64,000 nucleotides of DNA from Octopus vulgaris (lineage: Eukaryota): positions 37,014,001 through 37,078,000 of the forward strand of contig OX597831.1 in the NCBI GenBank assembly GCA_951406725.2. The letters run 5' to 3'. A model generated the notes under the pieces. That model did no database searches. It was given only the letters and a program-made list of their open reading frames with translations, and was not told the DNA's origin. Shown in pieces: positions 30,870 through 58,358 of this stretch. The number at the start of each line of letters is the position of its first letter. Position 1 is the stretch's first letter. The position numbers were made by a program, and so were the translations under genes.

Positions 30870-30905
30870 TCTTTATATATATAAAACTGGGAATGTGTGT
30901 GTGTG

Positions 30906-30943
<38 letters not shown>

Positions 30944-31641
30944 TGTGTCTGTCTGTCTGTGTGTTTCCCTAAAACTTGAGAACTACACAACCAATCTCAT
31001 TCCAATTTTACACATGCCTTACGTAGGGTCCGAGGAGTGTTATCGGCAAAAAAAATTAACTTTTTGCCTAGGGCGAGCCCACAGCAATATCATATCTTCT
31101 CCACTACGATTCCCTAAAACTCGAGAACTACACAACCAATTCCATTCAAATTTTACACATGCCTTACTTAGGATCCATGTAGTTTAATGGGCAAAAAATT
31201 TCAACTTCTTGCATAGAGCGAGCCCATAGCAATATCATATCTTCTCCACTATTTCAGTATTACGTGTTAAGAGTGAAACAAAAACGTTTCTCTATTTTAT
31301 GTCAGATACTTTCCCTTTAACAATAAAAATAATAATATCAATTGAATTATATGTAGTAAGTAATAATTAAAATCAAACTAAAGTATAATATAATCGTTAC
31401 ATAACAAAAGTAAAAATAGCAATTGGTATAAAATTGCATCAAGTATTTGAACTTGAATAAGTGGTTTCACATGAATGGGAATAAATTAAGAATAAAATTA
31501 GCGTGCAGAAATGGAATAGTCCAGATGGATAATAAAAAATTAAATTAAAGAAAAGACTATTGTCTATAAAGTATACAATGTAGAGAAAAAAGGTTATGTT
31601 TTTTTGCGCTCTGTAAAATTCGGTAAAAAAGAACAAAAAGC

Positions 31642-33309
31642 GTTGTTGTTGTTGTGGAAATTCTGAACGGCGTTGACGCGGTTTCGCGTTTCGCTCGTTC
31701 AGCGCGTTACACTTTTTCTGTTTTGGCGGCCGTTTTCGGTCTGTCAGACAGAAGGAAATGGACTATGAGTCTTTAACAGACTTGTCCACGACAGATGAGG
31801 AACTGGAACAGGCAATTGCAATGAAGCTGATGGAAGAAAAGGCTGGAGTTTTCGAGTCTTTATCAGACTTGCCTACGTCTGAGAAGGAGCTAGAAACGGC
31901 AGCAAGGGAATTGGAAGAGAAGCTGGGTTATACCTATGCCGGTGTAACCAAGAAGGCGGAAGAGAAGGGGGTCGACATGGCCAAGTTGCCAAGTTACCAG
32001 AAGTGCATGAAGAGGGAAGGCGGTGAGGTGGAACTATCACCGACACCCAGGAGAGAAGAATGGTATGATGGGAGGACCATTGTTTGCAGGGTGTTCGCGG
32101 GCGAAGGGAGGAGGGTGGAAGTTGTAACCATGGAATGGATGCGGGAGGCCCTGCGAGGAACTGAGGAGGAAGTAGATTTTCTGACTCGAGGATCCAAGTA
32201 CGGGACCGTAGTTGTGCACTTTAAAAGTGAATCTGCAGCGAGGAAGATGGCAGCGAAGGCGGTGAAGTCGGAAAAGGTAACACTGTTACCTACGTATTTA
32301 AACAGGAGGATTACACGAATAAGGGTGGAGGGAGTGCCACCAAACGTGGAGGCAGAATGGATTGTGGCGGCTGTGATCAGCGGCCACGAGGACGAAGTGG
32401 ATATTCTCCATGCCTCGGTTAGGTCCGGGGGCTGGAGGGGAGTAACAGTGGAGCTGAACGTGCAGGCGGAGACCGAGGTACTGGTGGACCTGACGGAGGG
32501 CATCAGACTGGGAGAGGTGATCATGAGAGTGTGGGTGGAGGGCGGGGCTCCACGTTGTTGCAAGTGTGGCCTGAGGGGTCACATAAGAGCCTTCTGCCCT
32601 CCCCCAGGGAAAGAAATGGATTCCGAACCAGAGGAGAAGGAAACAGAGGAAGAGAATACACAGAAATGGAAGGAAGTTGGAAGTAAGAGGAAGAGAAGAA
32701 TACGTGGAAAAAAAGAAAATAATATGGAACTCCAATCTACCCCAAAACCACCCACACCCTCTGAGTCCCACCCTATCCATGCAGACATTGAGCCCACCCG
32801 CTCCCCCCCAACAAGAAAACAAAAGAAAAAAAAAGAATACACACACACAAGAGATTGAAAGCGAACCCAGGCCGTACATTTGTACTATGACTGAACAGAA
32901 AGAAGTTAAAAGTCTAATGGAAGAGTATAAATGGTATGATGTTGGAGAGACTAGGTATGCTGTGATTGAAAAGAAGAACATAGGGGAGTTTATGGGGAGG
33001 TGTGAAAGGGAGAATTGGGAGGTGAAAGATATAAGAATGAGCGATAAATTCGTGGAAAATATGGATGAGTATTTCGGAGTAAGAATGGATATGGAATTTA
33101 TTCGTATTGGCAAAGAACATTCAAGTGACTATGAAAAACAAAGGACAAGTAAGTGATGCTGACGGACGGGGCCGTTGGTATCGCTTTCATTTTATCATTT
33201 TTTTCGTTTAACAATTCATGTTCATAAAGTTTAATTATAATGTTCTATGTCCCCATGTTTTGTTATGTCCGCCATTCTTCGTAGCCCCTTAGTGGGTAAT
33301 AAAGAAATC
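31642..33309 (+). mobile_element. RT-less ORF1-only non-LTR element (HAL1-like, Tx1/L1-related)
   Basis: GC-rich hairpin 5' UTR, gag-like ORF, short 3' UTR ending AGCCCCTTAGTGGGTAATAAAGAAAT. Confidence 0.7.
31758..33156 (+). CDS. Gag-like/ORF1 nucleic-acid-binding protein (RRM-like region + CCHC knuckle), ~465 aa if one extra base in the A-run near 32830 is removed
   Basis: ATG-initiated 366-aa ORF with CKCGLRGHIRAFC (CX2CX4HX4C); overlapping +1-frame ORF continues to 33156. Confidence 0.75.
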
Positions 33310-33600
33310 ACATGGAGGAAAGCACCTTCGAAAAGTGTCTTGGTGCGACTATGAAATGTATCTAATCAGAAGCGGTAAATTGGCCACAATAGAAGCAAGG
33401 TTCGAGTCAACGGAGCGTGCAAGGGAGTACTCGACTCGAACTTGCAAAGTGGAAATATTTTATTTTTACCTTTATATCTGGGACGTAGGACGTCCGGGAA
33501 AAAAATTAAAAAAATGCCTCCCCCACCAGAAGTAGAGGTAGGCTGAACTGTAGCCACACGTCTACACAAGAGGGAGGACAAGATACAATTGATCGAAATT
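33310..33600 (+). pseudogene. Decayed paralogous ORF1 fragment
   Basis: YLIRSGKLATIEARFESTERAREYS..ILFLPLYLGRR..MPP..EVEVG aligns with FLTRGSKYGTVVVHFKSESAARKMA..VTLLPTYLNRR..VPPNVEAEW. Confidence 0.75.
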
Positions 33601-33786
33601 ACAAGAGACGGGCTAACAATTCCAGTCTGTTATATATTTTGAGTATTGTTATCACTAGCGATATCAAGATATAACTTTGTATTTTGTATTTTATGTGTAG
33701 ATGTATATATATAGATGTACATGTAATATGTACACATATATATGCACATATATACATGCACTAGCAACGACGGGTCTTTAATGCTA

Positions 33787-33824
<38 letters not shown>

Positions 33825-56075: not shown

Positions 56076-56379
56076 TCATACGTATCTTTATATACATACA
56101 CATGCATATATATTTTATATGTATGCATATATTTACACATACACACACATGTACACATATGCGTGTGCACCCACACATGCACACATATGAACACACACAC
56201 ATATATTTTTGGTATAGATTTATCTCTCTGTCTGTCACTCTCTATTTTCTATGTATGTATGTACGTATGTATGTATGAATATATCTATGTATCTATGTAT
56301 GTATGTATGTATGTATGTATGTATGTATCTATCTATCTATCTATCTATTTATCTATCTATATGTCTGTCTCTATGTCTG

Positions 56380-56426
<47 letters not shown>

Positions 56427-56440
56427 GTATGTCTGTCTAT

Positions 56441-58358
56441 GGACATCTATCGAGACCCTTCGACATCGCACGTTCGGTCCGTCAGGGATGCCCCCTCTCG
56501 TCGCTTCTATACGTATTGACTCTCGAGCCATTATTGCGGAAGCTGGCAACTTTGAGAGGCATCCCGCGAGAGCTGGGATGCGGGACGAGCGTGTCTGCAT
56601 ACGCGGACGACGTCACCGTCATAGTGTCTAGCCACGAGCACATCGAGCAGGTCGGCGAGACACTGAAAAACTACGAAGCGGTGACAGGAGCGAAAATCAA
56701 CCGGGAAAAGTCAGTGGGCTTGCGACTAGGCACTTGGAGAAGCAAGCCCATGCCGTCCACCAGCGCCTCCGTCGTGGGACGCTGGACCGACGGCCCGGTT
56801 GAGTTGCTCGGGGTCTGGTTTGGTCCGGACCTCCAAGTGGAGAAGAACTGGAACGAGATAACGAGTAGGGTGGTCACTCTCGCCCGGCAATGGGCCGAGA
56901 GGAAACTGTCCCTAAAAGGTCGGGCGGAGGTGGCGAACACGTACATCGCGTCCGTCATCTACTACCGCCTGACCGTCGTACCTTGTCCCGACCCTACCAT
57001 CACCAAACTACAACGCATTCTCTTTCGCTTCTTGTGGAGAGGATGCGTCCCGATGGTCAGGCGATCCATTTGCTGTCAACACCCGTTAAAAGGAGGGCTG
57101 GGCATGCCGTGGTTGATGATGCGCAGACACGCGCTGAGACTGCGACATCTCTGGCTCTATGTAGACGACGGTGAACAGGTGTGGTCGCCGTTTGTGAGGC
57201 ACGCTTTCCCGCAGCTCGTCTCCATGACCGAACTGCAGTCGTGGATCAAAAAGAGGCCGAGGAAGGGCGAATGGCACCGCGAGTGTCGCGTTGCTCTCAA
57301 GCAACTCTGCCGTCCTGGGTCGACCTTGAGTGACTTCAACACAACCAAAGCATTCTATAGGGGTTTAGTGGAGGGGAGGTACGACGACGAGCTCGGGGCG
57401 AACCTGGACGTCGACGAGGAGTACCTGACCCGCCTGTTCAGGACGACTTTCGGGCCAGGACCCATGGACAACTTCCAGAGATCCCCGGCCTGGCAGTGCT
57501 ACCGAGAAGCGCTACCCGTTCGGGATAAGCTCTACAGACACGGCTCGAGAAACACGGGGCCGACCTGCCCGCGATGCGGTCAGAGCGACGAAACCGTTCT
57601 GCACGCACTCGTGCAGTGTCCAACAATTTCCGACCTGTGGGCTTGTGTCGAACAACTGCTGTCACGTGTGGGACGAGTCGGTTTATCAGCTGAATCTATC
57701 GTCAATATTGTCACGCCTCCTTCCTTCAAACGGGAAGGAAGAGCTATTTTCATCATCCTTGTGGCTATGGCGAAAGAATGTATCTGGTGGACGCGTCTGA
57801 AAGGATTGGAGACAAACACTTTCCTCTCTGGTCAATCTCTCATCAACTTCTTCAAGTACCACTTGAAAAGGAAAGTGAGAGTAGAGAGGCAAGTTTTGTC
57901 TAGCGAATGTTTAAAAAAAAGATGGGTGAATGTAGCAAGAATGGCACGTATGAATGACGAAGCCACCTTGAGCATAATCCTATGAACCCAGAAATTGAAA
58001 ACAGAGAGTTGCTTATTTGCAAAAAAAAAAAAGAAATATAACATGTGACTTCATTGACCGAGGTTACCGTGGTCTTTTCCGTAGGCTTTTCTTTCCACGG
58101 GTAAGCCTCACCTGTCCTCCCCTTTACACTTCATATTGACATTTCTGTGATAACGATCCCTATTGATCAATTTTTTTTTTCTTTCCTCTCCCCCATTTTT
58201 TTTTAACCTCCCCCTTTTTTTTGTCCTCTTTCTCTCCTTTTACGATCCCTTTTGATCGAAACTCCCCCCTTCCTTTTTTTTTTTAACCTTCAAAAGAAAA
58301 GCTCTACCTTGTAATTTGTTCTATCTGTGTGCAGCCCTGTGTGGCTAATAAAGAAACA
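56441..58358 (+). mobile_element. Young 5'-truncated Tx1/L1-clade LINE (RT C-half + zinc-binding domain; ORF open to 57985)
   Basis: [47 protein letters not shown]; no stops over ~515 codons; 19-bp TSD TATCTGTATGTCTGTCTAT (56422-56440 / 58359-58377). Confidence 0.95.

Follow-up and report, generated by a model that had tools for sequence, protein, structure and literature searches.

The window is a 64,000-nucleotide stretch of the Octopus vulgaris genome (GenBank assembly GCA_951406725.2, contig OX597831.1, positions 37,014,001 to 37,078,000, forward strand). It contains one full-length copy of a non-autonomous retroelement, here named family A, at 31593..33308 on the plus strand. The element carries ORF1 (open reading frame 1) of a long interspersed nuclear element (LINE) as its only gene. 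The original prediction, made from the sequence alone, described a compact unit with a 5' hairpin, a CCHC knuckle, a region beginning PRPYICTM and a LINE-type tail, with no endonuclease or reverse transcriptase (RT). All of these parts are present, and a domain scan detected no endonuclease or RT domain in the unit. The unit is compact as described; its start lies at 31593 instead of 31642, about 50 bp further 5', and its end at 33308. Both ends were fixed by junctions with other loci and by the empty-site joint of 31592 to 33309. The original prediction did not mention the insertion at a fixed site in a Helitron-like repeat, the mixed arrays or the A-to-G blocks, all described below. The features are collected in Table 1.

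Table 1. Features of the family-A copy, its host repeat and a LINE fragment in the window.
Feature	Positions	Strand	Basis or remark
Host repeat, 5' half	30870..31592	+	starts TC after A; 145-bp internal duplication in this copy
ORF1-only non-autonomous retroelement, family A	31593..33308	+	genome matches, exact tails, junctions
5' untranslated region (UTR)	31593..31757	+	T-rich leader like families B, C, D, E and some AUTO2-type autonomous LINEs
5' UTR hairpin, GTTT loop	31663..31702	+	fold energy against shuffles
ORF1, two frames in this copy	31758..33156	+	465 or 472 aa in intact copies
A-to-G block 1	31967..32175	+	22 of 79 A positions read G
Two predicted RRM-type domains, about residues 70-265	31965..32555	+	AlphaFold model and Foldseek
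A-to-G block 2	32422..32560	+	9 of 36 A positions read G
CX2CX4HX4C zinc knuckle	32556..32597	+	ORF1 alignment
C7/A9 homopolymer stretch with frame break	32803..32834	+	reading frames, other copies
C-terminal domain, predicted small alpha/beta	32866..33153	+	structure model
3' UTR and recognition tail ending GCCCCTTAGTGGGTAATAAAGAAAT	33157..33308	+	motif common to all array families and both autonomous families
Host repeat, 3' half	33309..33787	+	ends CTAG before T; subterminal hairpin partly deleted in this copy
Decayed ORF1 fragment in host (first RRM and start of second)	31535-31592 and 33309-33625	+	ORF1 profile; split by insertion
5'-truncated LINE fragment, RT and zf-RVT	56279-57985	+	L1/Tx1-like

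The reading frame starts at the ATG at 31758. The first frame ends at 32858, and the second frame (PRPYICTM..WYDVGETRYAVIEK region) stops at 33154-33156. The two frames represent one gene because other copies hold a single ORF of 465 or 472 aa. As predicted, the frameshift in the C7/A9 stretch is the sole frame lesion; the copy carries, besides, 32 A-to-G changes in 30 codons. Of 226 short indels in the family ORF, 161 fall in or beside homopolymer runs, which make up 10% of the ORF, and the frameshift may therefore be due to slippage or to faulty assembly. The predicted fold of the 5' hairpin has an energy of -23.3 kcal/mol (z -2.68), equalled by 4 of 200 shuffles. The corresponding z values of the related families B and C, introduced below, are -1.74 and -1.05; the inner stem is retained in the predicted fold of B and absent from the minimum-energy fold of C. 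The 3' UTR folded no better than shuffled sequence (z -0.29). No Rfam family reached its gathering score for the unit, the Rfam matches being microsatellite artefacts. The tail carries AATAAA, and the window copy terminates in AATAAAGAAAT without poly(A).

The copy number of family A was measured by several searches of the same genome. In the DNA search, the best 20 of 555 candidates were scored and gave 56 matches; 46 of these span at least 1,600 of 1,679 bases, and the other copies are 90-97% identical. At the protein level, 91 matches of 80-100% identity were obtained, and the public near-identical protein pieces carry the label Octopus vulgaris. The exact 27-base tail occurs 123 times in the genome, and the control 0 times. 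Sixty regions, picked by similarity to the element and not by flank, were fetched and contained 190 units, 163 of them near full length. A single ORF of at least 430 aa is kept in 51 of these 163 (10 of 30 in a smaller set). None of the 190 units continues into an ORF2 with apurinic/apyrimidinic endonuclease (APE) and RT; the 7 units that end before the tail are succeeded by another family-A piece. The median private divergence of the copies is 0.13% with A-to-G changes excluded, and the median divergence between loci is 2.8%. These data show that family A is a genuine multicopy ORF1-only family, as the original prediction proposed; it is young and not a one-off deletion. The full-length copies it looked for were recovered in number. 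The target-site duplication it expected is absent from the window copy, where 7 target bases (ATTTGAA) are lost instead; a few other junctions do have duplications or A runs. Separately, the public predicted proteins P0002, P0003, P0004 and P0014 consist of repeated family-A C-terminal domains. These gene models, which seem to arise from splicing across tandem arrays or from fusion with host genes, are probably annotation artefacts.

In the ORF1 protein, two predicted RRMs are followed by a CCHC knuckle, which a linker joins to a small C-terminal domain. The AlphaFold model of an intact copy (C2) has a predicted local distance difference test (pLDDT) score of 66-87 per block over residues 71-280. 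Ten Foldseek matches were obtained at E<=0.001, and every one is a tandem-RRM protein (e.g. raver1, IMP3, DND1, Prp24). Residues C267, C270, H275 and C280 are invariant across 12 aligned ORF1s; the Pfam zf-CCHC match is weak in family A (E 0.08) and exceeds the cut-off in family F. The RRM-RRM-CCHC architecture defines the type I ORF1 (PMC5203782). The tandem-RRM model and the invariant CCHC residues therefore place the family-A protein in type I. Structure search thus matched the first half to tandem-RRM proteins and left the second without a match. The C-terminal model is weak (pLDDT 52.7) and consists of a helix, a hairpin and then two helices. It had no Foldseek match at E<=0.001, and the Atlas search gave no usable match for it. 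The best VIA hit was a procarboxypeptidase activation domain (Z 4.2, root-mean-square deviation 4.1, 68 aligned residues), under the tool's noise level; the weak structural matches are mostly small alpha/beta sandwiches. An Ephrin identity was dropped, as the Pfam matches were sub-threshold only (E 0.008-0.055). The domain that had been called unfamiliar thus remains unmatched in Pfam, Foldseek and VIA. A compact C-terminal region follows the linker at the same ORF1 position in autonomous relatives and in the other array families. Homology between the C-terminal regions of A/B/C, those of the candidate helpers and those of D/E/F/G was not significant by hhalign (probability <1%), and a hidden Markov model match across families was discounted since the model contained its own seeds. 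As a guess, this domain could be a small module for RNA binding or assembly.

On both sides of the window copy lies sequence that is also found at other loci: the two halves of one 1.1-kb non-autonomous Helitron-like repeat, full copies of which carry a subterminal hairpin. Helitrons begin with TC at the 5' end, end with CTAG and a subterminal hairpin at the 3' end, and insert between A and T. The host repeat has these end features in the window, and CTAG followed by T was read in 6 of the 7 printed 3' ends of empty hosts (15 empty hosts in all, with 5' ends printed for 11). The decayed ORF1 fragment belongs to the host itself: the ORF1 profile matched forward frames in 15 of 15 empty hosts tested (best E 4e-26), and reversed control frames gave 0 matches at E<0.05. 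The exact empty site occurs 230 times in the genome. At the window locus, the insertion swapped out ATTTGAA without duplication, and six contigs of run X1 join 31592 directly to 33309. A TATAAA motif in the host (window 31557-31593) stands about 30 bases 5' of the element junction, and the host might transcribe the first unit.

A host half ends at the insertion site in 46 of the 60 regions. Four more were found on extension, which gives 50 of 60 loci. A share of over 20% of flanks is used as the mark of a target-specific non-LTR (long terminal repeat) element (PMC4494074), and family A lies far above this level. The junction is fixed, with the tail joined to CACATGG. [AG]CATGG is present at 33 of 33 counted filled 3' junctions, and the empty sites divide into 92 ACATGG vs 99 ACCTGG. 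This junction bias may reflect a sequence preference or the history of host subfamilies. One filled host, L060 (C10:65.71 Mb), falls in the ACCTGG subfamily by tree, yet its junction reads ACATGG. A second recurring target sequence outside the Helitron is common to family A, AUTO2 and AUTO1-like elements, at L066 (C31), L136 (C22), L160 (C2), and L168 and L215 (C10). A piece of it forms the spacer between units of the C2b array, perhaps carried in read-through RNA.

At most loci the units stand head to tail in arrays, with as many as 14 of family A; mixed in are further ORF1-only families, B, C, D, E and F, which are 33-58% identical to A. The array is often closed by an intact 5.25-kb LINE named AUTO1, and a common order is host / D,E,B,A / C / F / AUTO1 / host. 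Some arrays (C2b, C8_32) contain near-identical repeated units with the same spacer, and part of the array expansion probably took place at the DNA level. Two side observations concern the arrays. A further family, G, forms tandem ORF1-like units with a period of about 2.5 kb and a 413-aa ORF 27% identical to A (L040:838-5864, C4:80.13 Mb, minus strand); this tandem adjoins an A array without a Helitron flank. One array (L054:8141-10000 and L055, C1:74.68 Mb) holds an A unit with an internal inversion, which yields a long fold-back and is a possible source of double-stranded RNA.

The presence of 50 of 60 loci inside the host could also mean that family A is passive cargo. One insertion would then have been spread by rolling-circle transposition of the host, the arrays would have grown by unequal exchange, and the element would have had little retrotransposition of its own. 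The rather uniform 5' junction fits this, and so do the near-identical units of C2b and C8_32 with their hint of DNA-level duplication. The ages and the tree of the hosts speak otherwise. Filled hosts have a mean pairwise difference of 5.3% (minimum 3.0%), compared with at most 2.8% for the inserts. The younger age of the inserts argues against hitch-hiking. Filled hosts are also intermixed with empty hosts in the tree, and the nearest neighbour is an empty host for 13 of 26 filled hosts. The unit composition varies between loci, with six or more families per array in differing orders, and 5'-truncated and host-free copies exist. Lastly, the sense-strand A-to-G blocks in single copies, described below, require an RNA step. 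These data speak for independent insertions at the host site; cargo as the main route is largely refuted and was judged very improbable.

Two intact autonomous LINEs were compared as candidate helpers. AUTO1 has an ORF2 of 1,131 aa with Exo_endo_phos (1.5e-13), RVT_1 (1.4e-30) and zf-RVT (1.4e-8) matches above cut-off, and an intact ORF1. AUTO2, intact at C1:108561540-108566760, has a 445-aa ORF1 and an ORF2 of about 1,128 aa, and it stands directly behind a host 5' half without duplication. The tails of A, C and AUTO1 meet the same ACATGG (12, 12 and 7 junctions), with GCATGG at one junction of C. AUTO1 and F are usually inserted with a 12-13-bp duplication, A to E usually with target truncation. 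The tail identity to A is highest for AUTO2 (53 of 67 columns), followed by AUTO1 (46 of 68), and a T-rich leader resembling that of A is found in 3 of the 5 AUTO2-type copies with printed 5' ends. From these sequence comparisons, the helper likely belongs to the group of array-resident APE-RT LINEs. The AUTO2 lineage is the most likely helper, with AUTO1 as the alternative; AUTO2 is favoured because it has the closest tail, a similar leader, and no duplication at its one Helitron insertion. The helper architecture, an APE-RT-zinc-finger ORF2 and an RRM/CCHC ORF1, is consistent with the Tx1 clade (PMC5203782). No Tx1 name appeared among the 120 homologue matches listed, and it is the architecture alone that suggests Tx1 membership of the helpers.

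The original prediction had named a Tx1-type LINE as the mobiliser. The LINE fragment of the window itself (56279-57985) shares 52% identity with AUTO1 over its C-terminal part, and its 3' UTR is longer and its tail different; elements of this type were also found in C11, C12 and other fetched regions. It was rejected as the helper, being 5'-truncated and having a poorer tail match (44 of 71 columns) than AUTO2.

Selection on ORF1 was measured by comparing the families of the arrays. The ratio of nonsynonymous to synonymous substitution rates (dN/dS) is 0.26 (0.18-0.34) between A and C, 0.27 (0.16-0.38) between A and B, and 0.12 for the A-C core. In a tree of 27 ORF1 cores, left after 30 of 57 were dropped as near duplicates, A, B and C form one clade (100/98) on a long stem that includes no autonomous row. 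The ORF1 of family A is 34-36% identical to that of either AUTO1 or AUTO2, and family A is therefore no recent deletion product of these two LINEs. Within the autonomous copies sampled, the clade suggests that A/B/C are an old ORF1-only lineage. The low dN/dS values point to ORF1 being maintained by selection.

The ORF1 could instead be a neutral relic, left by a recent ORF2 deletion from an unsampled autonomous LINE, with the element moving by its tail alone like a short interspersed nuclear element (SINE). The full ORF is missing in 112 of 163 near-full copies in the assembly, as a relic would have it; most of these frame breaks are homopolymer indels. The autonomous sampling is limited, and the C-terminal domain is unconstrained between A and C. 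Yet among the 20 sampled copies together with AUTO1 and AUTO2, the maximum autonomous ORF1 identity to A is 45%, over 143 aa only. Three divergent ORF1-only families (46-58% identical) that form one clade and keep open frames at a dN/dS of about 0.26 also do not fit a neutral relic. This alternative was considered very unlikely.

The window copy also carries an excess of A-to-G changes. It differs from the family majority by 41 substitutions, of which 32 are A-to-G, 1 is T-to-C and 2 are G-to-A (binomial p ~1e-6); 27 of 190 copies, shorter than the query range 110-1700, were excluded, and columns with <80% agreement were ignored. The changes lie in two blocks (Table 1), and 0 of 70 A positions between the blocks are changed. 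Of the 30 codons affected, 18 are not those of the intact C2 copy. Sixteen of 163 copies have runs of at least 5 A-to-G changes, with the two contig strands equally represented (8 each), compared with 1 G-to-A run and no T-to-C or C-to-T runs. The A-to-G rate is 2.8% after G (19/684) vs 19-22% after T or A (198/944; Fisher p 4e-26). No A-to-G excess was found in the host halves (41 and 30). The same type of change was found in the other families: 51 of 56 changes are A-to-G in a family-B copy (L056:5687-7359, C8:64.98 Mb) and 17 of 21 in a family-C copy (L122:5173-6848, C14:65.43 Mb). This pattern indicates that the blocks are probably ADAR edits, made in the RNA before reverse transcription.

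The blocks might also be an artefact of sequencing or polishing, or a bias of the reverse transcriptase, in a family that is otherwise real. These assembly repeats contain many homopolymer indels, clusters of same-type systematic errors are known from Sanger traces (PMC2873906), and the 3' context of the changes is unlike that of published invertebrate ADARs (PMC5625713). The window copy also has 19 sites in common with the C3_20 copy, which common descent could explain as well. An artefact would not be expected to track the strand of the element on both contig strands without T-to-C or C-to-T runs. Nor would it leave the host halves at the same loci clean and give sharp block borders. The indels are no more numerous in the affected copies (median 1 vs 2). 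Contigs aligned to the window differ from it mainly as window G and contig A. Run X1 reads A at only 13-24% of its depth at 32099-32101, a weak point, and X1 may be the source sample. The share of window words in X1 is 0.70; 79% of the 31-mers of the copy recur in other copies, and this value is hence uninformative on the G letters. Contigs of three runs of guessed RNA origin cover 27-30 of 30 bins, as well as the host and the empty site, and were unused as evidence. Artefact or RT bias was regarded as unlikely, and ADAR editing is preferred.

These results are combined in the following explanation, which was judged likely. Family A sits at a fixed site in a Helitron-like repeat, and its RNA is likely packaged by its own ORF1 protein and likely copied in trans by a co-resident L1/Tx1-type APE-RT LINE. 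The family-A RNA would be bound by its own predicted two-RRM and CCHC protein, and the APE-RT protein of the helper would recognise the shared 3' tail. The helper endonuclease would nick at GAAC/ACATGG, and target-primed reverse transcription would copy the family-A RNA. Repeated rounds at the same site, with some DNA-level duplication, would build the arrays. ORF1 would be retained because it is needed in cis. ADAR would edit the parent RNA while it is double-stranded, and reverse transcription would fix the edits in DNA.

Several observations weigh against this explanation. Trans mobilisation was not observed, and neither AUTO1 nor AUTO2 fits as the helper on every point. The link of AUTO2 to the Helitron site is weak, with 1 of its 10 exact tails there; AUTO1 is frequent in the arrays but makes the 12-13-bp duplication, unlike family A; and the ORF1 of A is distant from that of both. 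The host repeat is absent at 10 of 60 loci, and no age gradient was found along the arrays (19 vs 17 of 39 loci, Wilcoxon p 0.43). The C-terminal domain has a dN/dS of 1.03 (0.55-2.66) between A and C, where dS is low. Autonomous sampling comprised 20 further copies, and the argument from selection would lose force if an unsampled parent lay within A/B/C. For the A-to-G blocks, a 3' neighbour G is favoured (17%, 108/629, vs 9-14%; 62/686 before A), and invertebrate ADARs are reported to prefer a 3' A (PMC5625713). The G letters were not confirmed on single raw reads.

A wider evolutionary scenario is tentative and was given a rather low probability. The LINEs would have evolved to cut in the ORF1 of their relatives, and a Helitron would have captured such a fragment and turned it into about 300 harmless landing pads. 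A guild of ORF1-only elements would then have diversified around two helpers, with ADAR edits, in about 1 copy in 10, acting as a heritable mutagen of ORF1.

Family A was then compared with known systems. ORF1-present non-autonomous LINEs have been listed as HAL1 (L1), HeT-A (Jockey clade) and Ag-Sponge (CR1 clade) (Kojima 2018, PMC5786205), so the suggestion in the original prediction that an invertebrate ORF1-only LINE was undescribed did not hold. Family A has the features given there: it encodes ORF1p, lacks ORF2, has a tail and leader like its autonomous counterpart, and has an ORF1 homologous to it at 34-36%. Like mammalian HAL1, it keeps the coding capacity of ORF1 only, with ORF2 inferred to act in trans (PMC5753468, PMC3627910). 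Unlike in HAL1, the family-A ORF1 is RRM-RRM-CCHC with no Transposase_22 match and is distant from the helper ORF1, and the copies stand at one site, in arrays, with a truncated target and, in the window copy, no poly(A). An L1-type poly(A) end and a target-site duplication are expected of HAL1. Family A is not HAL1 in the strict sense.

The arrays resemble HeT-A and the telomeric elements of the Jockey clade, in which ORF1-only families also form mixed head-to-tail arrays with ORF2-bearing helpers (PMC13534243, PMC5786205). About 40% of Drosophila telomeric families are ORF1-only, and ORF1-only lineages there too yield further ORF1-only families (PMC13534243). Unlike HeT-A, the family-A arrays are interstitial, in dozens of Helitron-like copies and not at chromosome ends, and the helper is L1/Tx1-like and not Jockey. 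Ag-Sponge of Anopheles is likewise an invertebrate ORF1-present non-autonomous LINE, and it is CR1-derived (PMC5786205). As to the target, Tx1L inserts in Tx1D of Xenopus, Tx1-Mar and SINEU-3 in Mariner-N4_AMi, and Tx1-9_AMi in Harbinger (PMC4494074). As with Tx1L and Tx1-Mar, the octopus target is a non-autonomous DNA transposon used by a Tx1-type LINE together with its dependants; tandem insertions and both duplication and truncation of the target are likewise seen (PMC4494074). The octopus system differs in its Helitron-like host, in the decayed ORF1 that spans the site, and in dependants that encode ORF1 in place of small nuclear RNA heads.

The A-to-G blocks resemble the changes in APOBEC-edited vertebrate LTR elements, where strand-biased runs of one substitution type occur in single copies and are absent from DNA transposons (PMC4866542). 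They share the avoidance of a 5' G with octopus ADAR hyper-editing (PMC5625713). Unlike these precedents, the A-to-G changes lie in an invertebrate non-LTR element, which implies that the RNA was edited before reverse transcription, and a 3' G is preferred. The O. vulgaris repeat annotation reports 13 active L1-Tx1 families without detail (PMC13282606). The literature search found no description of family A, of an ORF1-only Tx1-type element, or of cephalopod LINE copies with fixed ADAR edits; Repbase, Dfam and the library of PMC13282606 may hold family A.

The system is a new combination of ingredients that each have a precedent, and not a new class. To the L1, Jockey and CR1 clades, in which ORF1-only LINEs had been listed, it adds a site-specific group of L1/Tx1 type, and its arrays are a non-telomeric counterpart of those of HeT-A/TART. 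Helpers and dependants, both intact, are found with hundreds of empty targets in one genome. The need for ORF1 in cis, and the choice of duplication vs truncation at one nick, thereby become testable. If confirmed on reads, the A-to-G blocks would mean that RNA edits become part of heritable DNA, and this in the group of animals whose hyper-editing signal is the strongest in PMC5625713.

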